From: Yuukianura sp. NJ FZ-2021
Taxonomy: Eukaryota
Length of the DNA: 64,000 bases
Assembly: GCA_046563655.1 (NCBI GenBank)
Contig: CM102285.1
Span: 3,534,001-3,598,000, forward strand
Reading direction: 5' to 3'
Shown: piece after piece, positions 3,254 to 59,500 of the stretch
Position numbering within the stretch: position 1 is the first letter of the stretch
Layout of the letters: each line of letters opens with the position of its first letter
The notes under the pieces: generated by a model
The model's database searches: none
Seen by the model: only the letters and a program-made list of their open reading frames with translations
What the model was told of the DNA's origin: nothing
Made by a program: the position numbers and the translations under genes

Positions 3254-4449
3254 TTATTCATTACTAGGCTCCGAAGTTTCAATGGCATATGCGATTCCCA
3301 GTTTTATATACTCATGCAACTGCGTAAAATTGACAGTGTCCAGTGTATCTTGTCGTGTGTGCCAGTAAGGACTGTTGTTTGGTTCCTTAGCATAGGCCAC
3401 ACGGTAATTTTCATAATAGAAGGAAGCATGATCTGAACAGCCATAACCACAAGTTCGGTCCTTCCATCCCCACTGCGTGTAGGTTTCAACGAGTGTGCGC
3501 AGGAATTGAGTCAGATCGACATCGATGTAATCCGTATTCAGCCCGATTCGTTCTTCCGTATAATATCCGTCTACATCAAAGTTCAGCATTGAAAAAACGT
3601 CCACTCCTGCTTCGGCGTAGCTTGACGCAATTTCTCCAGAACCACGAAGACCAACTTCCTCTGCAGCATACCACTGGAACTCAATTGTTCTTTTCGGAAT
3701 GAAATTTGCATGGAGAATGGATCGGAGTACTTCCAGAACAATTGTGGATCCACTTCCATCGTCATCTGCTCCAGGAGCTTCGCCATTGGCTCCGGATGTT
3801 GCTGAATCTAAATGGCTCCCGAGAATAACACGCTGCTGTGTTAAAGCCGGATCCGCCCCTTCAATGCGCACAATCACACTCGGTTGAATGTACGACGCAT
3901 GCTCAAATGTGTTGACGGTGACTGTTCCAGAATATCCACTTTCCACCACTGATGCCTCGGCTTGTGATTTGATAAACAGGGCTGCGTCGAGACCTGATTG
4001 GCTAGTGTAGTAACGGTTGAAAAATGACGTCAAACTGGTCAAAAATGTTTCGGCATGTGTCAAATCAATCTGAGCGATGACATCCTGTACTTGTGCTGTA
4101 AATCTCGGTGTCTGCGGGATTTCTATTTGATTTCAAAAACAAGAAATTAAAAAAAAAACATAAGTAAGAAAAAATAATTTGAATCTTAATTACCGCCAGA
4201 ATTTGGAGCTTTTTTATGGGAGTGTGACGATTCTTTTTGATCTGTAATGTCGATAAATCCAATTCCAAGACTGTTTAGCTTCAAAATTTGAGATTCGGTA
4301 AGCCATTGCCCAAGATCTTGTTCACTTGTTTTAATTAACCTTTTTTCAGTAGTTTGAACTGCTTCATGCACCCTGTCATCTTCTAGCGGTTTTGAAGTTG
4401 CCAGTACTAACAAGACAGCAAACACTCCAAAACGGATAAATCCGTTCAT
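3254..4449 (-). CDS. Secreted M28-family leucyl aminopeptidase, fungal LAP1 / Vibrio aminopeptidase type (2 exons: 4449-4194, 4122-3254; ~374 aa)
   Basis: Signal peptide MNGFIRFGVFAVLLVLATS, propeptide with FIDITD, and Zn-ligand motifs VILGSHLDS, APGADDDGSG, YAAEEVGLRGS, MLNFD, CGYGCSDHASF and PYWHTRQDT. A 71-nt GT-AG intron (4193-4123) joins the two ORFs in phase. Confidence 0.92.
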
Positions 4450-40806: not shown

Positions 40807-41887
40807 AATAAACCGGTTGTAAACCGCCCATACTGATAATAGCGAAGCAATAGGCCCCCCGAAGGGGGTTTGTTCCCCCCACTTTCCCGCCTCCCCCCCC
40901 CGGGGGGAGTGGGGGTGTGTTTTCTCCAGTTTCCCGCCCCCCCGGAGTAGTGGGGGTGTGTTCCCCCCACTTTCCCGCCCCCCCAGGGTGAGTGTGGGTG
41001 TGTCCAGGGTGAGTGTGGGTGTGTTCCCCCCACTTTCCCGCCCCCCCCCAGGGTGAGTGTGGGTGTGTTCCCCCCACCTTCCCCCCCCCAGGGGGTGTTG
41101 ACATGTGAGACGTGACAGCTGAGGCGTGACAGGTGACAGGTGAGACGTGACAGGTGACACCCGGCAAGTGACACGTGAGGGTGACAGGTGACACGCGGCA
41201 AGTGACACGTGAGTGTGACAGGTGACACGCGGCAAGTGACACGTGAGTGTGACAGGTGACACGCGGCACGTGACAGGTGACACCCGGGAAGTGACAGGTG
41301 ACACCCGGTATGTGACAGGTGACACCCGGCAATTAACAGGTGACACCCGGCAATTAACAGGTGACAGGTGACACCCGGCAAGTGACAGGTGACACCCGGT
41401 GCGGTGGACACAGTGCATGAGTGTGTAAAGTGTATATGTCAACTGCGTAATAGATTTTTTGCTAAGCAGAGAACCAAGTCCCATGCCAATTGCCTTTCCA
41501 GTCTCACAAGCAGAGTTTTTGTTACACACACTTGCATTACAAATGACCTTTGAAATCGATTTTGACCCGGAAGGAGGTGACCTAGGGTCACACATTACAC
41601 ACAAAAGTTGTTCCCCTCGATGAGATGAACAACTTTTGTAGAGGTCATTTTCCATGTTACCTGGGATGAAACCGGTTGACCTTGACCTTTGACCCGGAAG
41701 GAATTGACACCCGGGGGTCATATTCAATAGTGACCAAGCCCGGGTCATGACATGGTCACTGGTGAAAACCGGAATCAAATCGGACCAGTAGTTTCTGAGA
41801 TAATTAATCTGGACAGACAGACAGACAGACAGACGGACAGACAGACAGACAGACAAACCACTTTTATCATAATAGCTTCGCTATTAT
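40807..41887 (-). mobile_element. HINE/DINE-1-like element, copy A of a head-to-tail dimer
   Basis: Read on the minus strand: 5' hairpin ATAATAGC-GAA-GCTATTAT, (GTCT)n, conserved core, central GTGACA-based minisatellite, G-rich block, 3' sub-TIR GCTTCGCTATTAT and stem-loop CGGTTTACAACCG. Confidence 0.85.
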
Positions 41888-42973
41888 AATAAACCGGTTG
41901 TAAACCGCCCATACTGATAATAGCGAAGCAATAGGCCCCCCGAAGGGGGTTTGTTCCCCCCACTTTCCTGCCTCCCCCCCCGGGGGAAGTGGGGGGTGTG
42001 TTTTCCTCACTTTACCGCCCCCCCCAGGGGAGTAGGGGTGTGTTTTCCCGCTTTTTGCTCCGCACCCCAGGAAGCGTAGGGGTGTGTTCCCCACTTTCCA
42101 GCCCCCCAGGGGTAGTGGGGGTGTGTTCCCCCACTTTCCCGCCCCCCCAGGGGGTTTTGACAGGTGAGACGTGACAGCTGAGGCGTGACAGGTGACACCC
42201 GGCAAGTGACACTTGAGGGTGACAGGTGACACGCGGCACGTGGCAGGTGACACCCGGCAAGTGACAAGTGACAGGTGACACCCGGCACGTGACAGGTGAG
42301 AGGTGACACCCGGAAAGTGACAGGTGACAGCTGACACCCGGCAAGTGACAAGTGACACCCGGAAAGTGACAGGTGAGAGGTGACACCCGGCAAGTGACAG
42401 GTGACAGCTGACACCCGGCAAGTGACAGGTGACACCCGGAAAGTCACAGGTGAGAGGTGACACCCGGAAAGTGACAGGTGACAGCTGACACCCGGCAAGT
42501 GACAGCCGTGACAGCCGTGACAGGTGACACCCGGCGCGTGACAGGTGAAGTGACAGATGAAGTGTGACAGGTGACAGTTGAGTGTGTTAGTCAACTGCGT
42601 AATGGATTTTGCTAAGCAGAAAACCAACTACCATGCCAATTGCCTTTCCAGTCTCACAAGCAGAGTCTTTGTTACATACACTTGCATTACAAATGACCTT
42701 TAAAATCCATTTTGACCCGGAAACAGGTGACCTAGCGTCACACATTCCACACAAAAGTTGTTAGTCTCAATGAGATGAACAACTTTTGTAGAGGTCATTT
42801 TCCATGTTACCGGGGATGAAACCGGTTGACCTTGACCTTTGACCCGGAAGGAGTTGACACCCGGGGTCATATTCAATAGTGACCAAGCCCGGGTCATGAC
42901 ATGGTCACTGGTGAAAACCGGAATCAAATCGGGCCAGTAGTTTCTGAGATAATTAATCTGGACAGACAGACAG

Positions 42974-43004
<31 letters not shown>

Positions 43005-43039: not shown

Positions 43040-44765
43040 AATGGATCCAGAACACCCGGACGTAGGGGCATAAGGTTTGCATATTAAGTTAGGTTATACG
43101 TTAGGCTGTTAGGTTATGCAATATGTTATTCTGACTATACAAAGTATTAGGTTAGGTTATGCATACTAACGCAACCTAGTTTCGGAGATTGGGAGGATGA
43201 CTTCCCTGCATATAATTATAACGTGTAGGCTAAGCAGCCCTTGGCTACCATAACACTTTCGAGTTTCCTCATTATATTAACTGGCGCGAAGTTTTGAATC
43301 TCCCGCCATTTATCGTAGGTTTCCGCTTCAAACATTTGCATCAGAGGAAGTGACTACTTTTTTTTCGAATTTTTTTTAAAATTTCATATGCAAGAGACGA
43401 TCTCAGAAGGAAATAGATTCTAACAAAGGAATTTGAGAAGTAACTGGCATTTAGGCTTGGGTGAAGCTTACTTCACAACCAAAAGACGCTTGATAGATGA
43501 GTTACTACCGTTAAAGCCCATGGAAGCTAATTTATCACTTCTCTGAGCCCTTAAGGGCCTCGCCCAAAGGTTAGGCTAGACCAACCTAACATATTTTCTC
43601 TGCATAGTTAAATAAGCACATTCACCTCTCAGTTCCCACAGATTCCGAAGCGTCCCTTGAAGGGACAATTGAATATGCGTTTTTTATGCTCATTTACTGT
43701 TAGATATGTCCAAGGCCCTTGGACCCAACCCTTTCCTTGGAATTGCTTTTCTTGCATGATGAGCAACGGGATTTTGTCTATTCTCAGGTTCCGTTTGAAG
43801 GGTCATGGGTTAACATTAGGCTAGGTTCAGGCCAACGTAAAAAACGGAGGACAATTGTGTCTCGAAGGCTATTCAAATGAAGGGGCCCTTATTTGAATAT
43901 CCCTCGAAATTTCTTCATCTCAAATGAGGATCTCTCTCATCTTATTCCAACCTTCCAATTGAACAGAGAACAGTTTTTTATAAAGTTCCTTTTGAACAAA
44001 AAAAGCGAAGGGTTGAATTTGATCTGGCGGAATCTTCGGAGACTTCGTTTGTTGTCCAAGGGACGGGGGCCCTTGGGATTGTGGTGCCTCCAAGGGACAG
44101 GTTTTGGTGGTGGCGGATAAAAAGTATTACGGTATGATTCAAAACTCATAAGCAGCAACGCATAAAACTTCGCTATAAACCAGAAAAACTTCGTTTTGGA
44201 TTGTGAAAATCTTGAAACTTTTCTGAAATTTTGCTCTTTTTAAACGGTATATCTTTATGCTACAAATGTTCGAATTCAAAAAAAATCTACACAAAAAATA
44301 GTTTTTTCTCTGGAGCTGTACATAGGTAAAATTTTGAAATTTATATTTAACTTTGATTTCAACGTTTTTGTAAATTTAGTGCCAACTAATGGATTGAACG
44401 AGTGAAAGCGTGGAATGTTGAAATCGCATCTCTCGTTTTCATTACCAAGGTTAACTTGTTAACGTCGTCAGCAACGGTTTGGGTAGGTTAATAACTTGAC
44501 CAAAAGTTAGCATAATGTGCTCAAAATACAAAACTACTTTAGTCAAGGTCGTGTTAACTTTTTTTAAAAAGGCTTAACCACATAAGGTTTTTTTAAACTT
44601 GCGCGCCCTACTGTAGCGTCTCTAATGTTTGTAAAAGTGATGTTCAGTTATGCAAGTATCAAACTGATCTGACTGAAAATATCCCACGCTCTTGGTTTGC
44701 ATGATTTCGTATCTGGTTAAAGGAAAACAGATAGAGAGGACCCTGAATAAGGGCTACCTTGTCCC

Positions 44766-44928
44766 AGTAGGAGGGTAGAGGGGACTTTCACGCCAAATCA
44801 ACCTTTGGACCCATAAGGTTTTAAAGCAACTGGCGTGAGATCCCAAAAGTCGGATTAATTAAGACATTCTTCAAGACTAATTAACACTTCCGTTCAAGAC
44901 TAATTAAGACTAATTAAATACTTCCTGT
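44766..44928 (+). repeat. Left terminal inverted repeat (163 bp)
   Basis: The first 100 bp are identical to the reverse complement of the right end. The remainder is identical except for one extra TAATTAAGAC unit on the right. Confidence 0.95.
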
Positions 44929-45238
44929 TGACTTTAATTAACACTCCTGTTATTTAATTAGTACCTTTGTCCGCTGACCATGGAGGAGGAGGAGGAAGAA
45001 AAAATGTGGGATTCAACGCTAAACAAATTCTTTGGGGGTCGGCTTTTGCTTAGGGGGTCGGCTCTGGCAGAATCCTAACTTCCTGTAACAATTAACACTT
45101 CCTGTTATTTAATTAATACCTTTGTCCGTTAACAATATCTGGCGGGTGGGAGGAGGAGGAGGAACACGAAAAAAGGCTATACCCTGACCCACAAATTCTT
45201 TGGGGGTCGGCTTAGGGGGTCGGCAGGTGTCGAGAGGG

Positions 45239-45273
45239 TATATAATACCACACATTTACGGAGACTTTCAGTC
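45239..45273 (+). promoter_or_regulatory. Pol II core promoter of pPolB (TATA + initiator)
   Basis: TATATAA at 45239 and arthropod-type Inr TCAGTC with its A at 45270 (31 nt spacing), upstream of ATG 45389. Confidence 0.6.
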
Positions 45274-45388
45274 TCTGCGCAACTACTGTTCAGTTCTATT
45301 GTCCTAAGATTGTCGCTACCTTTTACGGAGACTTTCAGTCTTTACACAACTCAGTTCTATTGTCCTAAGAATCTTATTGTCCTAAACA

Positions 45389-48300
45389 ATGTCAAAGCGC
45401 CAAGGAACACCAATTGTTGGACCATCAAGTAAACAATTTAATTGCATACTGTGCGCTCAAGGGTTTGCTTCTCGAGCAATATTAAAACTACATTTCGACC
45501 ATGTCCATAAAAACTGTCTTGAACCAGCACCACCAGGTTACGATGTCACGAACGAGAGTATTCTACAGGAATTTCGCCATTTGTTTTGCTATACATGTGG
45601 TATACCATTTGATTGTCGGAATAAGCTTCAAGAGCATTTCTACACCACTCATCCAGACTTTAGCATTCAAGATGGCGGAGGAATATCAACCGATCCTATA
45701 TCCGTGACTTTAGTGCTGGAATCTCTAAAAATGAGTCGCAAGTACATGGCCGACTTTGATACATTTCCATGTGGTGAAGGTGTCGACGAGAGAGACTTTT
45801 TTACGAATGTTAAACTATCATCCTATGAAGTCATCCGAGAAGACATCTCCAGATGGAAGAACTTAAGGATATTTTTTACCTTGGGGTGTCACTTCACCAA
45901 AACGCACGGAGATGGAACGGTAGAATCAAAGGATGTTGGATTCACCTCATTTCGACACCTTGTCTTCAATGCAAACATGCTACCTAAAGTTTGGTCAGTC
46001 ATGTGCAGCCAAATGTCGGACCAGATTGAAGACTTTACCAATGAGGGCAGCGGCTGGACTCTGGATTCCATTCGGAAATTTGGATTTGTCACTTCAAAAT
46101 ATCAATTCACCAAGATTGGTACATACATGGACACCCCGTACCCACTATCAACTCAAAAAGTTCTGCTTAACATCAACAACAGCAAAGTCTCAATGGACAA
46201 TTCCCACAACAAATGCTTCCTCTGGTCAGTGCTCGCCCATGACAAAATCGGTGGCATACCAGTCGGGAAAAACAACCATAGGTGCCGCATTGACAAGCTT
46301 GTGAAAACATACCAGCCAAATGAATACAAGTTGAACACTAAAGGACTCCATTTTCCGATGACTTTGGATCAGATCCCTCACTTTGAAGAACTCAACCCAA
46401 ACATTTCTATAACCATTCTTGGTTATGACATGGATGGACCACAGCCACCGAAGTTGAGCAAAATTGAATCATTCAATTTTATACAAAGCAAGATCTCAAT
46501 ACTGTACAATTCCCAACATCCGAAGGAAATACACATCGACTTGATGTGTCTTATGCAAGAAAACAACGCACACTTCATTCTGATTCGAAATCTTGAAGCC
46601 TTAATGAGAGCGCCAAATGATCACAAAGTCAAGCATATTTGTCGCAACTGTCTCTCCAATTTTCAATCAGCTCACTCTCTACAACAGCACATCAAGTATT
46701 GCGCAGCGTTGGATCTTCAAAAAGTTGTATATCCTGCAGACAAAAAATTGACTTTCAACAAGTGGGCCAGAACTCAGCCTGTACCATTTCGATTCTATGC
46801 AGACTTTGAAGCTTTCCTCCCAAAGTTTAATCCCTCAACTATAGAAGAGGAGGAACGCCGACAATTCAAAGAAGAGATACGTGGAAGACCAGTTCAACCT
46901 GTGAATAAATGTTGCACTCACCTACACAAGCCATGTGGATATGCTTGGGTTTGTGTCGACTTCAACGGAAAGCGAAGACATGGCGAATATTATCATATCA
47001 CCAGCGATGACGAAGACGTTGCTGCCAAATTCATTCAGAGCATTACTGAGTACTCCAAAACACTGGAAGAGGAAGTTCGGTACTATGAAAAAATTGCGCC
47101 AGATATGCTTAATCTGACTCCAGCGCAAAGAAGTGCTGCTGCCCTTGAAAAAAATTGTTGTTTTTGCAAGACGCCATTGGACGGAACGAAAGTACGACAC
47201 CACTCACATCTTCCACCGTTCAACTATATCGGGATGGCTCACCAAGACTGTAACCTCCAAGCACAAATCAAAAAGGAGTTTCCCGTCTTCATGCACAACT
47301 TCTCATCATATGATGTTCACTTCATTGTACAATCCGCTGGAAAGCTAAAGCAGGACGGAATCATCAAGGACATCACTGTTATCCCTAAGAGCAGTGAAAA
47401 ATACATGTCGCTGAGCATCGTTCCTGCGTACCACGATGATTTCGATGAGGACGATGGACCTTGGAGAAAAAAGCCCTTCAAGCTGAGGTTTACAGACAGT
47501 CTTGGATTTACACTGAAATCTTTGGACAAACTTGTGAAAGTGATGCGAGCTGATCCCAATGCTAAATTTCCAATTACAAGACAAGAGTTTGCACAACACG
47601 ATGACATTGAACTTCTCTTCAACAAAGGAGCTTATCCTTATTCTCTCATGAAGTCTTGTAAGGATTTCAAAATCAAACAACTACCTGCCAAAGAAGATTT
47701 CTATAATGACTTGACGGAATCACACATTGATAATGCCACTTATCAACACGCTCAGCAAGTCTGGAAAAGCTTCAACATTCAAGACATGGGAGATTGGCAT
47801 GACTTGTACGTCAGGCTAGATGTATCGCTTCTGGCTGATGTGATGGAAGGAATCCGAAAAATAATGTTTGATGCTTACGAATTGGACCTGGCCCATTATT
47901 TCTCGTTACCTATGATGGCAATGGACTGCGTTCTCAAGAAATCAGGAGTGGAATTGGAGCTAATCACGGATCCAACCATGCATTGCTGGCTGGAGCATGC
48001 TATTAGAGGTAAAACCTAGAAGACAAATGTTAGACATTTTCTAATTCATTTTATTTATAGGTGGATATGTTAGCGTTGGATCAATGCGAGAGGCTAGAGC
48101 GAACAATAAGTACATGGGAGATGAATACGATCCAGAAAAGGAGTCCAGTTACCTCATCTACATCGATGCCAACAACTTATATGTAAGTGTTCAACAACGT
48201 CTTTGAAAAATTATTATCTAAAGTTTAATGATTCACTAGGGCAAAAGCATGAGTCTTCCGCTTCCAACTGGTCAATTCCGCTGGCTAACAGAAGAAGAAC

Positions 48301-49632
48301 TGAAGAACATTCAAGAAAATAATTTTATCGTGAACAACGAAAAGGGGTACATGTTTGAAGTGGATTTGGAAATTGATCCTTCATTGCATGACAAGCTGAA
48401 CGATTTTCCTCCGGCTCCAGTTAGCCGTACAGTTGAACAAAAGGAGTTATCCACCCACCAGTTACAATTGACGGAGAAACTCAACACTTGTCCTGGAATT
48501 TTCAAGGTTAAGAAACTTGTGGCTGATCTGAATAATAAGAAGAACTACATTCTACATCACGCCATTTTGATGGAGTACCTGAAACTTGGAGTTAAAGTTA
48601 CAAAACTTCACTGCGGAATTTCCTTCACTCAGAGGCCATGGATGAAGGACTTTATCGACTTTAACACTGAAATGAGAAAAAGGGCTACATCAGACTTTGA
48701 AAAGGATTATTGGAAACTTCTCAACAATTCTGCATTTGGTAAAACAATCGAACAAGTTCGTAAACGTCAAAACGTTCGTATCGTTACATCCATGGAAGAA
48801 GCTCTACGTTACAACAAGAAACCCACCGTCCAGAATGTCATCCCAATTAACGAGTCAACATGCATCTTTATGATGAAGAGACTTCAAGTCACTTTAAACA
48901 AGCCAATATATACGGGCGTCACAGTGCTTGAGCTAGCAAAGAGCATCATGTACCGACATCACTACACGATACAAGCGAAATACGGCGTCGACAAGTGTCG
49001 CCTTATTTATACTGACACAGGTAAATGTTGAATTATCCAACAATTTAACTATAAACTAAAGCTAACTTTTTATTTCAGATTCCTTCATCTATCACATCCA
49101 AACCGATGACGTTTATCAAGACATGCTCCATGACAAGGACTTGTATGACATGAGTGAATATGAATCCGATCACCCCATTTTTGGAGAGTTTCACGATCCC
49201 ACAAACAAGAAAGTTTTGGGAAAATTCAAAGATGAAGCTGCCGGTTCTGTAGTCACTCACGTCGTTTGCCCTCGTCCAAAAATGTACACCATTAGATCCT
49301 TGAAACTTCAAGTCTACCGAGGCTTTGATGGGAAAAATATTTACCAAAAGAAGACTGACGGCAGCTGGTTCATCAAAGACGAATACACGAAGAAAGTCAA
49401 AGGAATAACTAAAACTGCTGTCAACAACCAAATAGCGTATGAAGATTTCGAGAAAGTCCTTAAAGAAGATGTTCAAACTCGTGTATGGATGAGAGGATTT
49501 AGAAGTGTAGAGCATAGAATTTTCACAGAAGTAACGTTAAAAAGGGCTCTTAACGGTTTAGATACGAAACGATATGGTGTTGATAGAATTAACACATTAG
49601 CATTTGGACATAAGGATGTGATTAAACAATAG
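45389..49632 (+). CDS. Protein-primed family B DNA polymerase, Polinton type (4 exons: 45389-48008, 48061-48182, 48240-49020, 49079-49632; ~1358 aa)
   Basis: ExoI YADFE, ExoII HNFSSYD, ExoIII YVRLD and motif B KLLNNSAFGK. Splicing restores IRG|G, DANNLY|GKSM (motif A) and YTDT|DS (motif C). Also two N-terminal C2H2 fingers and an EndoVII/HNH-like insert CCFC...VRHHSH...AHQDCN. AATAAA at 49681. Confidence 0.93.
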
Positions 49633-49689
49633 TTTATTATAAGTCGTGTCTATTGAATTAGTAATCGTAAAACTGAAAACAATAAATGT

Positions 49690-50115
49690 TTATAAAATCA
49701 TTTTGTCAAGCATTTTCAACAATCCTGCTTTGGTTATATTGATTACATTTCTTTTTCCGGCTTTTACAACAGCTATTAAAAAATCTAATTGACTTGAATC
49801 CAACTGGTCGGATGATTCCTCTTCATCGTCATCTGAATCAGAATCAGAATCGTCTGCTCCTTCCACAAGCTTCCGTAAACTGTCCAAAGTTAGCCGTTGA
49901 ACTCCAATATCCGCATTGTGTAGCGCATGAAGAATTAGCGATAAGCTGGATTTGCTCATGCCAGAATGTGCCTTAGAGTCATCTTCTTCTTCAGTTTCCG
50001 TTTCAGAGTATGCCTCAGAATCCATAGCTTCGTCTGAATGCGCAGTGCGAATATGTCGATGTAATGCGTCAGCGCGGGAAAATGACTTGGAACAAATGTC
50101 ACAGTAAACAGGCAT
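49690..50115 (-). CDS. Small single-C2H2 zinc-finger protein with acidic tracts and two helical repeats (~141 aa)
   Basis: MPVYCDICSKSFSRADALHRHIRTAH. TATAAAA (50164) and Inr TCAGTT (A at 50132) lie just upstream on the minus strand, and minus-strand AATAAA is at 49638-49633. The longer called ORF runs through the microsatellite and is not credible. Confidence 0.8.
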   Translation of the reverse strand: MPVYCDICSKSFSRADALHRHIRTAHSDEAMDSEAYSETETEEEDDSKAHSGMSKSSLSLILHALHNADIGVQRLTLDSLRKLVEGADDSDSDSDDDEEESSDQLDSSQLDFLIAVVKAGKRNVINITKAGLLKMLDKMIL

Positions 50116-50128
50116 GATGTACAAATGC

Positions 50129-50380
50129 AACTGAACAAATTTTTTCGGTTGCAACAGTTTTATAGTGGTGGTGGTGGTGGTGCCTCCTCCTCCTCCACCT
50201 CCTCCACCACCTCCTCCTCCTCCTCCTCCTCCTCCTCCTCCTCCTCCTCTCCTCCTCCTCCTCCTCCTCCTCCTCCTCCTCCTCCTCTCCTCCTCCTCCT
50301 CCTCCTCCTCCTCCTCCACGCAGGCTTATCAGGTGGTCGTGGTGTATATAAAGCGTTGGTGTGATGATGGAGGCACTTCT
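50129..50380. promoter_or_regulatory. Bidirectional promoter with back-to-back TATA boxes enclosing a (GTG)6 + ~(CCT)45 microsatellite
   Basis: Minus-strand TATAAAA 50164-50158 with Inr at 50132. Plus-strand TATATAAAG at 50345 with Inr-like GCACTT at ~50375. (GTG)6 at 50165-50182 and an interrupted CCT tract at 50183-50317. Confidence 0.7.
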
Positions 50381-50416
50381 GTCCCTCATCATTTGTGTTT
50401 CAGCATTCACAACAGC

Positions 50417-51151
50417 ATGGATTGTAGTGTTTGCAACAGTACGTTCACACGTTCGGATAACCTTAAACGCCATGTATATACTGCACATGGACATCAAACC
50501 GATGATACTACAGCGGATCGTGATACCACAGCGGATGAGTGTTTTGATTATAGGTTAAAGGCACCATTCTGCATGACAATTAGCGGAGCAAGCCAAAGTG
50601 GGAAGTCGTCGCTTCTTAAGCAATTACTCCTTCAACGTTTTGAAATGATTGATATTCCGATTAATGATATCCTTTATTGTTATGGAGAGCCAGAGAATGA
50701 ATTTTTTAAGGATCTGAAAAGTCACATCCCAACAATTGAATTTCACTATGGATTACCTGACGATTTTGCGAGTCCCTGCAACACTCATCGAATAGTCGTA
50801 CTTGACGATCTAATGCATGAAGTTTGTGCTAATAAGGATATCGCCTCAGCATTTACTCGAACGAGCCACCACAGAAATGTGAGCATAATTTTCGTCACTC
50901 AAAACTTCTTCGAGAAAGGACAACGTACGATAACAACAAATTGCCAGTATATTTGTTTCACGAAAAATCCTCGAGAAGTCTCTCAAGTTCTCTGCTTCGG
51001 ACGTCAGCTAACAAAAAACGGAAAACGTAACGAAGCTCTGGAAACGTGCTATGAAGACGTTATGAAAAAACCGTATGGTCATGTATTTATAGACCTGCAC
51101 CAATCCCAGGATGATAGGTTTAGAATCACAGAATCCTACAGAAATAATTGA
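50417..51151 (+). CDS. FtsK/HerA-superfamily (A32-like) packaging-type ATPase with N-terminal C2H2 finger (~244 aa)
   Basis: Finger CSVCNSTFTRSDNLKRHVYTAH, Walker A GASQSGKS, Walker B IVVLDDLM, motif TRTSHHRNVSIIFVTQN and C-terminal KPYGHVFIDL, as in Polinton ATPases. AATAAA at 51172. Confidence 0.88.
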   Translation: MDCSVCNSTFTRSDNLKRHVYTAHGHQTDDTTADRDTTADECFDYRLKAPFCMTISGASQSGKSSLLKQLLLQRFEMIDIPINDILYCYGEPENEFFKDLKSHIPTIEFHYGLPDDFASPCNTHRIVVLDDLMHEVCANKDIASAFTRTSHHRNVSIIFVTQNFFEKGQRTITTNCQYICFTKNPREVSQVLCFGRQLTKNGKRNEALETCYEDVMKKPYGHVFIDLHQSQDDRFRITESYRNN

Positions 51152-51183
51152 TAATTTTATTTGACTTTGTGAATAAAGACCGT

Positions 51184-51900
51184 TTAGCAATCTCTTTTAC
51201 CATGAAAAGTAATTTTCCAAATTATGTCACTGGAATAATGCTCTAGTCGAATACTCTCAAGTACAGCAAGTTCTCTCTTACCATAGAAACTATCTATTCC
51301 CCATTTCCATCTGTTAATTTCCATTTGCTGGTGCTTAGTAACGTCCAGTACATGTTGACTGTAGTTTGATGTATTAGTTGTTGTGCAGCAACAGTTGAAC
51401 TCGCCAAAAATACTCCTACAAGGATCGATTTCCAATTTGTTGTGACAGGATCGGAACGCCTCATTGCGAAGTTTCTCGATGTAGCCGCGTTTAGTTTCAT
51501 GAATCAGCATATCCAAAGATTCCTCCAAGTATGTGATAGGAAAACATCCACATTTTAGAAGTGACTCAACCAGCAGAGGAATATGGTCCAAATCGATCAT
51601 AACAGGCGCGCCGCTTCGGATAAGGATGACACGAGATGATGCGTCCTTGATAAAATGAATCGGCAGTAGTGGTTCATCCGGCGAGTACTCATTTTGCTTT
51701 GCTGCATTGTTACGGTTCTGTAGTAACAGCTTCTCAAAATGTGGAAGATGCTTAATCATTCTTCCTTCTTCAATATATGCTTTGACTAGCTCCTCTACAA
51801 CCGTTGGTAGTTCTTCGGATGAGAACATAATTGAACTTCCAGAAATCCCGACGCCAATGAGTCCCATGCTTAGAAACACTTCCGGTAGGGTAGATTCCAT
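51184..51900 (-). CDS. Hypothetical protein, paralog A (~238 aa)
   Basis: Intact ORF inside the element, colinear with 52186..52881 (LPHFEK, YLxESLDxxIHExKR, NCCC, HxLDxTKHQQ, IxFHG). Minus-strand AATAAA at 51161-51156. Confidence 0.8.
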   Translation of the reverse strand: MESTLPEVFLSMGLIGVGISGSSIMFSSEELPTVVEELVKAYIEEGRMIKHLPHFEKLLLQNRNNAAKQNEYSPDEPLLPIHFIKDASSRVILIRSGAPVMIDLDHIPLLVESLLKCGCFPITYLEESLDMLIHETKRGYIEKLRNEAFRSCHNKLEIDPCRSIFGEFNCCCTTTNTSNYSQHVLDVTKHQQMEINRWKWGIDSFYGKRELAVLESIRLEHYSSDIIWKITFHGKRDC

Positions 51901-52185
51901 TCTTGGCAATAGTAAATTTTAGTACAATAGTAAATGGATGGTGATGGTTAAACTGTATAGGTAGCACTGCGTTCCCCCCTGAATGTGGGTGGCATTAAAT
52001 TCCCCCTAATCACATGTTCAAAGTAAGTTCCAAAAACGTTTTTTGTACAAGAGCCAATCAGATTCATAGTCCTGGGGGCGAGGGAGTTAGCTCCTCCTAA
52101 CAAAGCAAAAAGAAAATGAATTAGTCCCAATTAGTTCAGTCTTAACTGGTCGTAAGAAGGAAACGCGAGTTTAAATTAGCTCAAC

Positions 52186-52881
52186 ATGGAAGTACTTTCG
52201 TCCACATCCGGTATTGAAGTCAGAAATTCATCTTTTTCCATTACTTTTACTTTGGAGGAACTGACGACGGTAGTTGAGAAGTTAGTTGTTCTATACATTG
52301 GAGCGGGGAAAATGATGGCTGACCTACCGCATTTTGAAAAAATTCTGGCTCAAAATCGTAAGAAAGCGAGCCAAGTAGAATCAGTCCGGGAAATCAGGGA
52401 AGCGAGTATTCATTGCATACGAGAAGATGATCAAGTATTCCTAATTCGAGCGTCTGGCGCTGCTGCTGTTAAGCTGGATCAAGTTCCACGTTTGGTTGGA
52501 AGACTCCTAAAATCATTTCCAACTTCGTATTTAGACGAATCGTTGGATAGAGTTATCCATGAAGCAAAACGAAGCTACTTGAAGGATCTACGCGAATTGG
52601 CTTTGAGTAGGTGTCGAAATAAAGAAATTCCAAGTAATGGAAGTGTTTTCGATCGTCCTAATTGCTGCTGTCCACAAACAAATCAACACATTCGGAAACA
52701 ATATACGTCACATTTGCTGGATTTGACAAAACACCAACAATTTCAGATCCGTCGAAGAACCTTTGTTATGGAGAGTTCTACACGTAGCATGTATTCTACG
52801 CTCGAGGAACTTCGAATGAAGCCGTACAGTGCTGATGTAATTGGCAGCATCATATTTCATGGTGTTCTAACCACTCCATAG
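52186..52881 (+). CDS. Hypothetical protein, paralog B (231 aa)
   Basis: Intact ORF divergently oriented to paralog A and homologous to it over nearly its full length. Confidence 0.8.
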   Translation: MEVLSSTSGIEVRNSSFSITFTLEELTTVVEKLVVLYIGAGKMMADLPHFEKILAQNRKKASQVESVREIREASIHCIREDDQVFLIRASGAAAVKLDQVPRLVGRLLKSFPTSYLDESLDRVIHEAKRSYLKDLRELALSRCRNKEIPSNGSVFDRPNCCCPQTNQHIRKQYTSHLLDLTKHQQFQIRRRTFVMESSTRSMYSTLEELRMKPYSADVIGSIIFHGVLTTP

Positions 52882-53705
52882 CTTGTAATTTTAATGTAAC
52901 TAGGATTTACAGATGTTAAAAATTTGAAGAAAAATGATTGTCCTTTCTAGTTTCGTTTAAAAGTTGAAAAACAAGCTGGCAAAGTAATTAAAGAACCTGG
53001 CCAAATGTGTTTAATTAATGTTCACACGTAGCGTTAAGAGAATTGTTCTAGGAAGCATTAATGGATTTACAAAAAATTTGAAAATAAAGGATTACAAGTC
53101 CTTTCTTGTTTCGTTTAAGAGTTGTGAACAATGTTCAAGCTTCATTGCTGCTTAACCTATAACACCTACATAACGGTCAGTTGTTGTAGACCGGAAATGA
53201 TTAAGACCGGAAACCACCAATTACCGGTGCATGTGTCCGATTTTGCAAAAGGACTATAGACTAAGTTGGTTAGTTTACACATGAACTAAAAGGCATCCTA
53301 ACTACTCATGGTTTAAAGTATGAATTTCATAATTTTCAGTGACGCATGCATTTTTTGTTTCAAATTTGGTGGGAAAGTTGTTCCTATTGGCTCGTGGTTA
53401 GGTTTCTCCACACATTTAAAATTGGATTTTGATGGGTGTTTTCATGTCATCCATTTTAACAAATTGGAGGGAGCCAGAGAGCGGAATTGGAGATTAGGCC
53501 GGATGTAGAATCATTATGGATGCAGAAAAGTAACTGACCATTTAGACATCCACGCCACCTTTTAAACCGTCTTGCTAATGCGACTAATTAATGAGAACAG
53601 ATGGCGTTTAACTGTCGCGGGATGTATTTAATTGGACACAGGAAGCGTTAATTGGTTTTAATTAGTCTTGAACGGAAGTGCTAATTAGTGCGTTCAGGAA
53701 TAGTC

Positions 53706-53878
53706 ACAGGAAGTATTTAATTAGTCTTAATTAGTCTTGAACGGAAGTGTTAATTAGTCTTGAAGAATGTCTTAATTAGTCTTAATTAATCCGACTTTTG
53801 GGATCTCACGCCAGTTGCTTTAAAACCTTATGGGTCCAAAGGTTGATTTGGCGTGAAAGTCCCCTCTACCCTCCTACT
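53706..53878 (-). repeat. Right terminal inverted repeat (173 bp)
   Basis: Reverse complement of 44766-44928 plus a 10-bp slippage duplication; followed directly by GTCCC. Confidence 0.95.
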
Positions 53879-56443
53879 GTCCCTTTTGCTTTCAAGGGAC
53901 CAGGGCCCTTGGAACCCTTTACGGGTTTTGCTTGTTAAAAAGCAAAGGCCAAGAATTAAAATACTCCTTCCCTAGATTTGCATGTATTCAAACCAGGTTG
54001 AAGTAGGTCCTTTCCCATGACCCTTCGGAAGGTCAAAATCCATTTGGAGGCCCTTCAATCCTTTCGGAGTTTTCAGTCTCCGATATGCAAAAAGACCCGG
54101 GAATTGTTCCTTGGAAGAAGAAAAAAATCGGAAGGCATCATCTTTTCCTGGGAAAGGGACAGTTTTGGTTCTGCGGGCCCTTTTCTTCTGTTTATTTGAA
54201 TAATAAATCAATATATTATGCTGATTTAACGGGTTTTAACCCGTTCCTTCTCTTTTTTAAGCAAAGAAAAAGCGGGACCCTTAGAAAAAAGTGTTTGATA
54301 AGAAAGATCCCTTGACCTTGTAGGAAGGGCCCCCTCTTGTCCCTTACGGAATCTCCCTATGCAAACTACCACTACGAAAATCTTTTTGGTGGACTTGGAG
54401 GCAAAACCTCCGTTTTCGCTTCCTTCCTGCTTAGGCTTGTTTGGTAAGCGCAACTACTTTTGAGACTGTACTAGTAGACGCACCCTGAAAAAATGGAAAG
54501 TAAAAAAATCGATCCAGAAAATCGTGTGAGGAGGACGTTGTTGGAAATGTATAGGAAGTGAAGCTAGCTGATGACATCATTCCTTTTGCTTAGAAAAAAA
54601 GTTTAAGCGAAAAGAGTCTACGATTTCTTTCTGAAACTACCTTCACTCTTCTTACGTTCTTTGAACCAAAAGGAAGCAAAAGTTCTGGAGGAAGCAGAAC
54701 CATACGCAAGTATCGCTTCACTTTTACCTTATTTTTCAAAGTTGGTGGTACACATGGTAAGACTTAAAAAACATTTCAAGTTCAAACCACATTTGAAAAT
54801 TTTTTGGAAGGTTCATTTTGCCTAAAAAGAATTTGGGCATTTACGGAAAGAAAAAAGTTTCTTTTTTTAAAAAAAAAAGGTCCCAACTTTTCTTCTCGGA
54901 AAACTTTTCACTTTCCCAAAATTTGTGAACTCAAAAAATTTTCACAGAATTCTTTTTGGAAAAAAAGGTGTGCTAAATTTGGGAGTTCTCATACTAAAAA
55001 TTCAAGAAACCTAAACTAAGAAACTAAAATTAAACAAAATTTGCAAAAGCCCGTGAATGTAAAGTGAAAGCAAACTTAATACATCGGTTTGTGAAACTAA
55101 AAAGTTAATGTTGAGTTAAATTAGTAATGCTTTTTATATAACAGATAAAAAAATTAGTAATGTTAGGCATGCCTAGCAAACTTGGAACAAGCGTTTTCTG
55201 GAAGACGGGGCTTTGTGTTTGACTAAAGTAAGGTTAATTAATTTAACCTAAATTACTCAAACAAACAAAATCAATTTACATTGTTAGATTGAAAATAAAT
55301 TAGGTTAGGCTAGGAATATTAAGCAAGCTACCTTCATTTGATTTATGTGAGAGTTGGTTAAGTGGAGATGATGGGATGCTTAAGATGAGATGTGATTAGC
55401 CGCCTTCTCTTTCTCTTGTGACTTTCATGAATGAAAGTGAAAGTGGCGTGCGTTTCAGGTTAGGTTAAGGAAGTGTCTTGGAAGGGAGACGCTGTTAGGT
55501 TAAGGTTAGGCTTTGTGCCTACTTAAACTTCTTAAGATTTATACTCATCCACTCCACCGAGAGACTATAGACACTTGACCTCCTTTAATCTTCAGTTCCC
55601 ATCGAACTCCCTTACCTACCACAATCCTATTTTTATTTTTAGACACAAAAATATAGAATCGGAAGTGTAACTTAATTACGATTTGTTTAAAATACGGCCT
55701 ACAATTGCGTTAGGATTATAAAATGTTTTACGGCTGCTGGTATTTCTTCTTGAATGTGATTTTGAAAAGCGCGTTACATATTCTTTAATTCTTATTTCAG
55801 AATACACGTTTTCAAAACAACATTTCCTTAAATTAAAGTAAGTTAATTGCTAGTTAATTAACCGAGTTCTGCAATACGGAAATCAGGAGTGTTTATAACC
55901 AGAAGCTTAAATTTAAGCTGGAAAATTTTCTAGACGAGTAATTAAAAGAAATTTTGTTAATCACGCTATTAAGACGAGATCGAAGAACCTGAAAATAACA
56001 TTAGAAAAGAGGATTATACAATTATATTCTTAACAGCAATAATTTTAGTTTTTCAAGAAATATAAACAAGATATTAAACGTTTTCCAATCCATCTAGTGC
56101 AAATGATGATTATTGTAAAAGAATTCAAAATATAACGAAGGCTTACAAAGTACTAAATTATTAATCACCTTAAATAAATTGATAATTATTTTAATTTAAT
56201 TTCTGTATTTACAGGTTTCTCAATATTCAATGGCGTGGCGAAGTCAGAATCTTCTCAAACATTATACAAAAGAAATCTCAACCGCTAAATTCACTTCCAT
56301 CTAAGTACGAAGTACTACTAACTTCAGAAGGTAAGCAAAATTATTTTGAAATTGTTTAGTCTGCATTGCTTCCAAGATCTTTATTACTAAGCATACAAAA
56401 AATTGAAGTATAAAAAGCAAACCTAGATTTTCGAAACTCTTCT

Positions 56444-56571
56444 TGATTTAAACAAAATAAGTCTCCACGCTTTTAAGTTCTCTCGCAATGTTATGAATTC
56501 TCGGACCTGATTTAAACAAAATAAGTCTCCACGCTTTTAAGTTCTCTCGCAATGTTATGAATTCTCGGACC
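56444..56571. repeat. Perfect 64-bp tandem duplication
   Basis: TGATTTAAACAAAATAAGTCTCCACGC...GAATTCTCGGACC occurs at 56444-56507 and 56508-56571. Confidence 0.9.
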
Positions 56572-59500
56572 TAAATAGAGGGGTGAGCATTGGGTAGAAA
56601 ACTAAGCAAAAACTCCCCAAAATCGTCCTTTTTTTCTAAAAATTTACAAAAAAGCTCCAAACAAAAAGCCAACCCCGAAGCCATACCGTCTAAAGTTCCC
56701 GATTGAAGTTTTATTGGGGGAGTTTTATTTTGTGTGAGAGGGTCAAAGGAAAGAGGATTTGGAAATTTCATTTTGACAGAAAATAGGGAAGAGAGAAGTA
56801 GGGGGATGAAAGTAGCAGTGGAGAACACCAGTGTTGTTCCTGGACTCCAGAAAATCCATTGTAATCCCGTTGGCGAGACTGGCATGACAACGGAACCGAA
56901 TCCATTGTCCTCCTCGTCTGCGGTTGGCGGCCATTATGAAATTGAAACTCCCGCAAACTAAATTTCAAATTGAAAATGCCCTCTGTCCTGAGTAAGATAA
57001 TCGACATGAGCTCCTTTCTCCTTTCGTGTCATCATCATCAAACGGCTTCCGTGTGGCAGGTCATTAGGAACACCACACTGACACAACCAAGCTATTCAGT
57101 AACAACATAGTCTAACTTATTACAAGGAAATGACTAGAGTGAAAGTCTATGAAAGTACTAAGAGTGTAGTAGCATATTAGACTCGTTCGTGGTGAAAGTG
57201 ATAGACTTTAATAGACAGGCGAAGACTAATGAGTCAACCGGAGAAGATGTCACTCAGCGGGAATCTTTGAATTTGAAACCATTATGGGCTTTTGTGTACA
57301 CTTTTCACCGCAAAAGCAACAAAGGAGTTTTCAGCTTGTTAAAGTTTGCTTAAATTTGGTTGGTAGAACCCAACGTTGGCTCATTCCGCAGTGTCAAAAT
57401 TCAAAAATTAAATTAACTTAAATCTCGAGCTCCATTTTTGAAAAATAATTGAGAAAAAGAATCCCACTACTCACATTTCCGAAAAGTTATTCGGATTTTG
57501 GTTTTATGTACTCAGATAATTTGTTACGAGTCTGCATAGACATTTTGCCTTCTGAATCTGAATTCTCAATTTCTGAAGTGAACGGGTAAAACATTTGAGA
57601 TTTGAAAATAACCGCAAGTCTTGATTTAGTGAAAGTTAGCATAGGGCGTCCAAGTTGTGATATTGGATCCATATATGTTTTGTGTTTTGTTGGTTTTGTT
57701 TTTTATCGAAATTTTGTAAACTTTTGAAAAAGTAATTTCTTACTGTGAGAAAGAAGTGAAAGTAAATGAGCTGGAAAATGATTTGAGGAGGGCATGTTCA
57801 AACAGTGATCATTACATCCAGATGCTTTTCCATTATGATTCAAGGAACAAGGAAGAACGGAGAAGTCAGAACCATTAGCCAAGTCAAAGGAAATAATATC
57901 TCATGTTTCATTTACAAAAAAAAATGGGACTGGGAGGGAGGTCGTAAGTGAAAGGAACTTTCTCCAAACGGACTTAATATGGTACTAAAAACCAGAAAAG
58001 CATAAGGAAAGAAGGCTGCGCTTTCACTAGTTCTCTTCCGGGAAATTAATATGTCAGGAATTACAATCTGATTTCCCTCTTCCCCGAACTTAAAACCGCT
58101 CAGCAGACTTTTTGATTAATTCCACAAACCCAAAAATCCTTCTTCAACCACTCTTGGATAATAGCTCTACCAATTTTTTACCAATTTTATCCAATTTTTC
58201 TAGATATCCATTACATAGTTGCATTTTTGTAACTTAACCGCAACAAAAACTTGAAAATGAGACAAAACGAAGCTTACTAAGCGTCAATGTCGTATTACGT
58301 CACTGAAAGTTGAAAAATTCAGTTCCGTTTACTGTGTAAATTACTAAAAATATTTTTGCTCTTTCATCCTTCAGTTCTGCACACATTAAGAACGTATGTA
58401 ATTGCAGAACATCTAATTCTGCATAAGCAGTTACGACGCAATTCGAATTATGTAATGATGCAAGGTTTACCTCATTACATGATGTATTAGGGTTGAGCTG
58501 AATATCGAGAACATCTTATGTTTGGAGCGGCATTTGTTCCTAAAGTTTAAGCAAATTTTGTTACATTTGAGCGAATTGTTGGATTCTTCAGCAGCTTTTA
58601 CATGCAGTTAAGGCTGGGTTTCCGAGTCGAAATATTAGAATTGTCGATAACATTACGTTAGTTGTCACACTTTAGAAGAGGAGAAAGCAGGTAATGTTGG
58701 TAGAGTGGATGGTGCGATCGACTACAATTGGACTTAATGGTCCACTTCAACTTTAGCATTAGGCATTAGACGTGGGAATAGAGAGAGGAGAGTGACGTAA
58801 GTTTGGGAATGGAGTCGTACGTGTAGCGCTTTAGCAGTAGTGGCAGCGATTTAGGAAAGAAATCAGCGGAAAGTGTTTTCTCGTCGTCGCATTTGAAGGG
58901 AATCCATTAGGGGAAGTGGTTTTGGAGAAGGCTGGGGTGGGGCTGGTGGGGCCGTGGTGGAGCCTGTGTTTGACAATAGTAGCCATCGCTCTTCGTCATG
59001 CTCGAAGAAGGTGGTTAAGCGACGGGCTAAAAATAATGTAACGCTCGAGCAGTTGCTTGGCGCTGGAGACGAGTAAGCGGAACCTTCCTGAGTCCTTGCT
59101 GAGGCTTCCTGGGAAGAAACCTGGAACAAGAATTTTTTCGAAGAATAATGCAATATTGGTCCGAATGTTGAAGTGGGGCGGCGGAGTGTTAGAGGCTGAA
59201 AATGGGGGCGGCGGGGCAGGGTGGGGCCATTGGTGGATCGACATTGAAGAAAGAAGGGGGAACTGATCGTGTCATATTGATCGACTGGGAAGTTGGAAAC
59301 CTATCATAGGGTAGAGAGCTGAGGCTGGCTGCTGCTAAAGGCTGTTCTCAACATACAAGTTGCTTTCTCCCTCATCCGCCTAGACTGTCTGTCACTTTTG
59401 CTTTTTCCATAAAGAGTAATAGAGTTATTGTGTGCAGAGGCACAACAGTTCTCCAATGGCACCCAAAATACTATGGCTGCCCAGGAGAAAGTGGAGGTAA

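Follow-up and report, generated by a model that had tools for sequence, protein, structure and literature searches.

The pac sites of phages lie in or beside the small-terminase gene, with site and reader gene tightly linked, and GAGA factor binds GAGAG in promoters through one C2H2 zinc finger. In adenovirus the packaging ATPase IVa2 binds the repeats of the packaging domain (nt 220–400) as well as a promoter element, with 22K on an adjacent motif (PMC5033970). Here we describe a locus at positions 49690–51151 of a 64,000-nucleotide stretch of Yuukianura sp. NJ FZ-2021 (GCA_046563655.1, contig CM102285.1, positions 3,534,001 to 3,598,000; hereafter the window, to which all unlabelled positions refer). 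The locus lies within a 9.1-kb mobile element and holds two divergent genes, one encoding a packaging-type ATPase and the other a small acidic protein. Each gene opens with one C2H2 finger, and a triplet array matching the predicted specificity of that finger lies in the promoter region between the two. Based on sequence comparison, the fingers probably bind these arrays, which would act at the promoter as an operator, mark the genome for recognition, or do both. A full-text literature search together with PMC3671162, PMC10748475, and PMC8502044, supplementary files aside, describe neither a fusion of finger and ATPase nor cognate arrays in Mavericks. The finding bears on how Mavericks/Polintons recognize their own DNA and on whether they form particles at all.

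Zinc Fingers and Triplet Arrays

The product of the ATPase gene is, by its motifs, profile match, and modelled fold, a packaging-type ATPase. Its Walker A and Walker B motifs read GASQSGKS and VVLDDL, it scores 26.1 bits against Pfam Pox_A32 (PF04665), above the cut-off of 22.8, and the top Foldseek hits of its AlphaFold2 model (mean pLDDT 89.6) are the STIV/STIV2 B204 packaging NTPases (E = 1.6e-6, TM 0.51/0.59). Homologues are found in elements with an rve integrase (L022, L027, L037, and L065), and L027 and L037 also have an adenovirus-type protease. The FtsK/HerA-type assignment, first made in a sequence-only reading of the window, is thus upheld by the profile score, the fold match, and the presence of relatives in full Mavericks. 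One database labels an ATPase homologue "Poxvirus A32 protein/Zinc finger, C2H2 type". The ATPase begins with its C2H2 finger (50423–50488, helix RSDNLKR), followed by a flexible acidic linker of about 20 amino acids and the ATPase domain. In the model, finger residues 1–24 reach pLDDT 94–95 and take the beta-beta-alpha fold with a helix at residues 13–23, and linker residues 32–39 fall below 50.

In the small acidic protein an N-terminal C2H2 finger (codons 50038–50103, helix RADALHR) is followed by an acidic tract, and the C-terminal part is conserved; the protein scores 29.1 bits against Pfam zf-C2H2, above the cut-off of 25.2. A six-frame scan agrees with the earlier observation that the two genes each open with one related finger. 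Both fingers have the classical C2H2 core and spacing (C-x2-C-x12-H-x4-H), and there is one finger per protein, with no tandem fingers or TGEKP linkers in either. The sole homologue of the small protein, P0039, is of similar length and 44% identical, and its helix, RHDALSR, also has A at +3. No longer forms of the protein were found, and its neighbours in the Atlas were generic C2H2 proteins only.

The contact residues of both helices are R(−1), D(+2), N or A(+3), and R(+6). An aspartate at +2 prefers G or T as the next base, and the GAG-G and GTG-G words of the arrays fit this preference. In published module tables, GAG is listed with RSDNLAR and GTG with RSDALTR (PMC3607563), GTG subsites are read with RSDALTR (PMC2634973), and GAG is assigned RSDNLVR (PMC5260015). 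The canonical code therefore predicts GAG(G) for the ATPase finger and GTG(G) for the small-protein finger, and the earlier assignment of R/N/R to GAG and R/A/R to GTG agrees with these tables.

Both predicted triplets are found between the TATA-like boxes of the two genes (Table 1), where Tandem Repeats Finder returned the (GTG)6 and roughly 45 CCT units noted in the sequence-only reading, as well as (GGA)5 at both of the tracts noted upstream of the polymerase gene. In the 64-kb window there are six AGG-class runs of at least three units, all within the 9.1-kb element and none across the remaining 54.9 kb, and (GTG)6 is the sole GTG-class run of at least four units. GTG-rich stretches stand on both sides of the GAG array in the window (Table 1) and also at L085/L087 (L087 5708–5727 and 5912–5917), and the array unit of L050, read on the purine strand, is GTG followed by three AGG. 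It may be that the real unit is a composite GTG+GAG site, a pattern noticed after the fact. Two open reading frames (ORFs) crossing the array, 50099–50494 (−) and 50125–50364 (+), translate to homopolymer runs and were rejected as genes, and a sigma-70 promoter scan was discarded as irrelevant to a eukaryotic element.

Related Loci

A scan of 1.84 billion representatives returned 5,304 ATPase homologues at E ≤ 1e-3, and a genuine finger was present ahead of Walker A in 31 of the 187 homologues examined. Across 36 first (N-terminal) fingers of ATPase homologues, R(−1) is kept in 33, R(+6) in 34, and D(+2) in 20, and the core has F/Y in 34 and L/M in 30. Position +3 is N in 19, S in 6, D in 6, and A in 2. 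Constant arginines at −1 and +6 around a variable +3 are the pattern that would be expected of a helix reading G-N-G.

Ninety-five loci with ATPase relatives were then compared with the window: 80 metagenome contigs (the best 80 of 405 confirmed), 14 eukaryote-like contigs in bacterial metagenome-assembled genomes (MAGs), and one from IMG/VR. Alignment A1 found no relatives in IMG/VR, and the narrower alignment A3, used in place of A2, which was too diverse for locus scans, found one, the fingerless L084. Of the 96 loci including the window, 69 were informative, with at least 300 nt upstream of the ATPase; L009 and L080 have a finger and less than 300 nt upstream, and were left out of scoring. 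An array was scored when at least four perfect AGG-class units lay within 1 kb upstream of the ATPase.

Apart from the window, such arrays accompany R-N-R fingers at L025 (helix RIDNLQR, (TCC)8.7), L050 (RSDNLQR, a 390-nt array of TCCTCCTCCTCAC), and L085/L087 (RKDNLQR, four to five blocks of (GAG)3–8 with the spacer AACAATAGAATT). The R-N-R ATPases with arrays are only 31–46% identical to one another and make up four lineages; the tree, which does not include L085/L087, puts the window, L025, and L050 into different clades. Interspersed with these are neighbours that lack both finger and array: L002 next to the window and, next to L025, L010, which keeps a finger remnant. Most arrays end close to the TATA box, 28 nt away in the window, about 5 nt in L025, and about 15 nt in L085/L087. 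The AGG runs of L085 and L087 are confined to the upstream array, L025 has one further (GAG)5 run downstream of the ATPase, and L050 is almost wholly array. No small R-A-R finger protein was found near L085/L087 within the fetched DNA. Beyond the R-N-R group, L005 has the helix RSDALKR and an imperfect (TGG)42 about 505 nt from TATA, L003 (SRQSYQL) has AT-rich 72-nt repeats and no triplet array of at least four units, and L088 (WGHDLNR) has no array.

Counted over the informative loci, AGG arrays are present at 5 of 6 R-N-R loci and 2 of 63 others (p = 1.1e-5), at 4 of 5 against 2 of 63 when the window is left out (p = 9e-5), and at 3 of 4 against 2 of 55 when nine near-duplicate loci are also removed (p = 0.0012), and ACC-class arrays are present at 1 of 2 R-A-R loci and 0 of 57 others (p = 0.034), all in tests with small numbers and short contigs that ignore host composition and residual relatedness. 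The condition that the sequence-only reading had named for its own refutation, relatives that keep the fingers while lacking the arrays, was examined in this way, and the outcome favours that reading: finger type and repeat type occur together across distant lineages, with L086 and L024 as exceptions.

These limits of the tests are among several points that weigh against recognition of the arrays by the fingers. The ATPase finger scores 22.3 bits against Pfam zf-C2H2 (PF00096), under the 25.2 gathering cut-off, and (AGG)4 occurs once each at the fingerless L066 and L084. The (TGG)n array of L005 lies upstream of the sequence that L005 has in common with L024, and as the L024 contig stops before that region, this array may not be tied to the R-A-R finger in particular. 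Other points also speak for a different explanation, a coincidence or a host-driven feature of the promoter, in which the arrays are ordinary promoter microsatellites (nucleosome-excluding, H-DNA-forming, or sites for host factors) and the fingers serve protein contacts, RNA binding, nuclear import, or a non-specific grip on DNA, with R/N/R as the ancestral helix. L086 keeps an R/A/R finger (RKDAMLR) and has no array in about 150 nt of intergenic DNA, and L024 (RTFNLNR) has a 9-mer array, TGCTCCTAG x20.8 with one GAG per unit and ending about 15 nt before TATA, rather than a triplet array. The orientation of the arrays is not constant, the coding strand being pyrimidine in the window, L025, and L050 and purine in L085/L087. 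Unrelated tandem arrays are common upstream of fingerless ATPases as well (L013–L015, L067, and L075), suggesting that arrays as such are a habit of the family. Lone C2H2 fingers usually bind weakly, and R-N-R is the commonest helix (19 of 36), so that whatever recurs in these promoters would often be found together with it. We nevertheless consider this explanation unlikely, as AGG arrays at the other informative loci are limited to two with four units each and the 54.9 kb of flanking host DNA has none. Furthermore, clade members that have lost or lack the finger also lack the array (L002 and L010), A(+3) fingers stand beside GTG-class repeats in the window and L005, and the near-invariant arginines around a variable +3 are what is seen in DNA-reading fingers.

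A comparison of L005 (560–1063) with L024 (244–791) showed that the ATPase DNA is 92.6% identical and that there is no homology in the block spanning upstream region, TATA, finger, and linker, indicating that the finger and its neighbouring DNA move as one cassette by recombinational swapping.

Some further features of these loci were noted. Arrays with unrelated units (11, 28, 22, 72, and 19–23 nt) lie near ATPase or polymerase genes without an R-N-R finger at L013/L014/L015, L067, L075, L003, L010, and L020/L021, and in L021 the 23-nt array flanks the polymerase gene on both sides in inverted orientation. In L088, (CAG)26 at 486–563 encodes a poly-Q linker between the finger and the ATPase domain, and L091 has an apparent GT-start intron after the finger exon. 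Cargo genes include a BIR+RING (IAP-like) protein in L022 (8628–9476) and a NIDO-domain protein in L065 (5186–5899), and PI-PLC X-domain proteins are found just downstream of the ATPase in the closest relatives of the window (L001 788–1549 and L002 4382–5250). L081–L083 and L085–L095 are Maverick-like contigs in MAGs labelled bacterial (Limnohabitans, Sedimenticola, Myxococcales, and others), most likely through binning contamination.

The Mobile Element

Its ends and gene content mark the element as a Maverick/Polinton derivative that is young and mobile and has neither integrase nor capsid genes. It is bounded by terminal inverted repeats (TIRs) with two pairs of matching arms (I1, 101 nt and 100% complementary; I2, 76 nt and 99%) and by a target duplication of 5–6 bp, both as in Mavericks/Polintons. 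An empty-site joint (44759 to 53878, with 6 shared letters) is present in contigs of three public DNA runs (X1, X3, and X4) from two organisms, indicating that the insertion is recent and polymorphic. The family is multi-copy, with hundreds of contig pieces 85–99% alike in public DNA runs. Among the public runs the stretch is matched by DNA contigs only, and RNA matches at a share of 0.05 are most likely microsatellite words; the contigs break at 50156–50325, that is, across the array. No rve integrase ORF was found in 44765–53879 in the ORF list or with Pfam, and we therefore call the element a derivative lacking integrase. No protease or recognisable capsid gene is present among the ORFs of the 9.1-kb element either, and capsid genes were not identified in any of the related loci fetched. 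The combination of a protein-primed PolB (pPolB) and a Pox_A32 ATPase without integrase or capsid genes leads us to read it as derived from a Maverick/Polinton.

Possible Roles of the Arrays

In the explanation we favour, each N-terminal Zif268-type finger sits on a flexible tether and would bind its own triplet array. Contact at each site would be weak, with multivalency supplied by the number of sites and by oligomers of the ATPase. In the array the element would thereby encode a cis site for its own proteins, with a primary role as a promoter-proximal operator/enhancer that autoregulates the ATPase and small-protein genes, and the small protein, which looks like a finger joined to an acidic activation region, would be an activator-like partner. 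This account, in which we infer the binding, its multivalent character, and the regulatory outcome, has in our view about an even chance of being correct. It is favoured because the arrays lie close to TATA in four lineages and the small protein combines a finger with an acidic region, and the position of the arrays by the TATA boxes suits an operator no less than a packaging signal. Possibly the same contact also marks the genome for the ATPase, in the manner of adenovirus IVa2, and the retention of ATPase and arrays without capsid genes, together with (GGA)5 near one end only, keeps such a role alive.

Alternatively, the tag could come first, with the ATPase finger, helped by the small finger protein, marking element DNA for encapsidation, much as adenovirus IVa2 and L4-22K act on the A-repeats. 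An element without capsid, protease, and integrase genes would keep its ATPase and tag so as to enter helper capsids, and the promoter position would reflect only the tight linkage of reader and site. The ATPase is of the packaging type, with Pox_A32 above the cut-off and STIV B204 as top Foldseek hits, and its relatives belong to elements with rve integrase and adenovirus-type protease; the window element has none of those genes, and yet its perfect TIRs, together with the target duplication and the empty-site allele, show a recent move. The (GGA)5 tracts are found near one end only, at 217 and 384 nt from the left terminus, the adenovirus packaging domain lies at nt 220–400 (PMC5033970), and the finger cassette and adjoining region swap together in L005/L024. 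However, the large arrays are internal, 3.6–5.4 kb from the ends of the window element, and stand near TATA in four lineages. Terminal information covers the window element only, and the small partner protein has one known homologue. Helper capsids themselves are suggested by the missing capsid, integrase, and protease genes, and we regard packaging as the first role of the arrays as rather unlikely. More speculative still is a one-finger address label, in which the +3 residue and the linked microsatellite triplet would set whose DNA the ATPase acts on, switches of +3 and array or of the whole cassette would make incompatibility groups, and stripped elements such as this one, reduced to polymerase, ATPase, and label, would parasitise the capsids of full-length relatives; we think this improbable.

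The observation made in the sequence-only reading is confirmed in every detail, and its interpretation, a packaging signal or autoregulatory operator bound multivalently by the ATPase, is supported in part. A code-readable finger on a packaging ATPase with a matching linked repeat offers a direct experimental handle, with specificity switches predictable from one residue, and the roughly 5,300 homologous ATPases in public data make the pattern testable at scale. If true, this would be a natural case of single-finger/microsatellite recognition, and it may explain the persistence of short elements without capsid and integrase genes.

Other Genes and Flanking DNA

The pPolB gene of the element is interrupted by introns at 48009–48060 (52 nt), 48183–48239 (57 nt), and 49021–49078 (58 nt), and splicing restores the motifs IDANNLY and YTDTDS. 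With these, the product has the motifs of a protein-primed PolB (FYADFEAF, HNFSSYD, IDANNLY, NSAFGK, YTDTDS, and GKFKDE). The three large ORF pieces are adjacent and in the same order in relatives by tblastn, and none of the three had a Pfam hit. The distant locus L065 matches PF03175 at E = 3.7e-44 and is not matched by the pPolB of the window in tblastn. Intron content varies among relatives, with L025 and L017 continuous at some of the intron points. The six-frame scan placed two C2H2 fingers at the N-terminus of pPolB (45443–45508 and 45587–45652, helices SRAILKL and CRNKLQE), and a C2HC-like finger (C-x2-C-x12-H-x4-C) is found mid-protein. Similar polymerase-strand fingers occur in L017, L020, L021, L022, and L027, with helices off the G-N-G pattern. 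The sole other cargo of the element is a pair of paralogous genes (Table 1), whose products have a CCC motif in common and had no match in Pfam, PHROG, the Atlas, or the related loci.

Outside the element, a GC-rich block at 40864–43004 (53% GC compared to about 36% around it) is made of nested tandem repeats with units of 7–77 nt, such as GTGACAGGTGACACCCGGCAA. An apparent duplication of about 1.15 kb is seen within it, with (GACA)11 at 41812 and 42961 and TTGACCT repeats at 41676 and 42826. A 64-nt unit at 56444–56572 is perfectly duplicated in tandem (2.0 copies, 100% match). Host-side ORFs include 788–1819, a terpene synthase family 2 match at 27.5 bits, and 3254–4132, a peptidase M28 match at 115 bits.

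Table 1. Positions of the features of the 9.1-kb element in the window.
Feature	Positions	Strand	Remarks
Left target-site duplication	44760..44765	.	TGTCCC, or 5 nt with the first T assigned to the terminus
Left TIR	44765..44928	.	internal TAATTA-type sub-repeats (23-nt tandem units); terminus AGTAGG...
(GGA)5	44982..44996	+	217 nt from left end, within a duplicated module of about 150 nt; Tandem Repeats Finder
(GGA)5	45149..45163	+	384 nt from left end, about 75 nt upstream of pPolB TATA, GGTGG before it
TATA of pPolB	45239..45246
pPolB	45389..49632	+	4 exons, 3 GT..AG introns; from ORFs, intron borders, and tblastn to relatives
Small acidic protein	49690..50115	-	141 aa; starts MPVYCDICSKSFSRADALHRHIRTAH
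TATA-like box of small-protein gene	50158..50164	-	CTATAAAA; abuts (GTG)6; predicted from sequence
(GTG)6	50165..50182	+	predicted cognate of RADALHR; Tandem Repeats Finder
CCT array	50183..50317	+	x45.7, 94% matches; (AGG)n/(GAG)n on minus strand; predicted cognate of RSDNLKR; Tandem Repeats Finder
GTG-rich stretch	50333..50344	+	GTGGTCGTGGTG; abuts ATPase TATA box
TATA-like box of ATPase gene	50345..50352	+	TATATAAA; 28 nt past CCT array; predicted from sequence
A32/FtsK-HerA-type packaging ATPase	50417..51151	+	244 aa; starts MDCSVCNSTFTRSDNLKRHVYTAH
Protein of unknown function	51184..51900	-	238 aa; paralogue of the 52186..52881 gene, 45% identity
Protein of unknown function	52186..52881	+	231 aa; paralogue of the 51184..51900 gene, divergently transcribed
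Right TIR	53706..53879	.	ends ...CCTACT
Right target-site duplication	53878..53883	.	TGTCCC

Comparison with Known Systems

The element resembles Mavericks/Polintons (adintovirus-like) in its pPolB, A32/FtsK ATPase, TIRs ending AG...CT, and target duplication of 5–6 bp, and differs from them in that this copy is just 9.1 kb long, with no integrase, protease, or recognisable capsid genes found. Compared to phage pac sites and their terminases, the protein family and the hosts are different, and the predicted reader is fused to the ATPase itself. GAGA factor is similar in using one finger and a purine-rich promoter repeat. However, it needs flanking basic regions, whereas here acidic sequence follows the finger, the repeat period is 3 nt, and a BTB domain is absent.

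The fingers themselves are most easily compared with Zif268 and the engineered modules, having the C-x2-C-x12-H-x4-H spacing, contacts at −1, +2, +3, and +6 as in the GAG and GTG modules, and a predicted beta-beta-alpha fold. Classical proteins of this kind carry tandem fingers joined by short linkers, whereas the finger here stands alone, fused to an ATPase in one protein and to an acidic region in the other, and affinity would have to come from oligomers and arrays of sites.

The comparison with adenovirus extends to the arrangement of the whole locus. IVa2 is without a C2H2 finger and its site is the bipartite AT-rich A-repeat, not a microsatellite; the main array of the window is internal, by the TATA boxes, and binding is shown for adenovirus and predicted here. 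With that said, IVa2 belongs to the same broad lineage of packaging ATPases, and it recognises a short motif that recurs in its own genome, with a second small viral protein on an adjacent motif (PMC5033970). The window has in parallel an ATPase and a small protein with predicted GAG and GTG specificity, adjacent arrays of the two triplets, and (GGA)5 tracts 217 and 384 nt from one end of the element.

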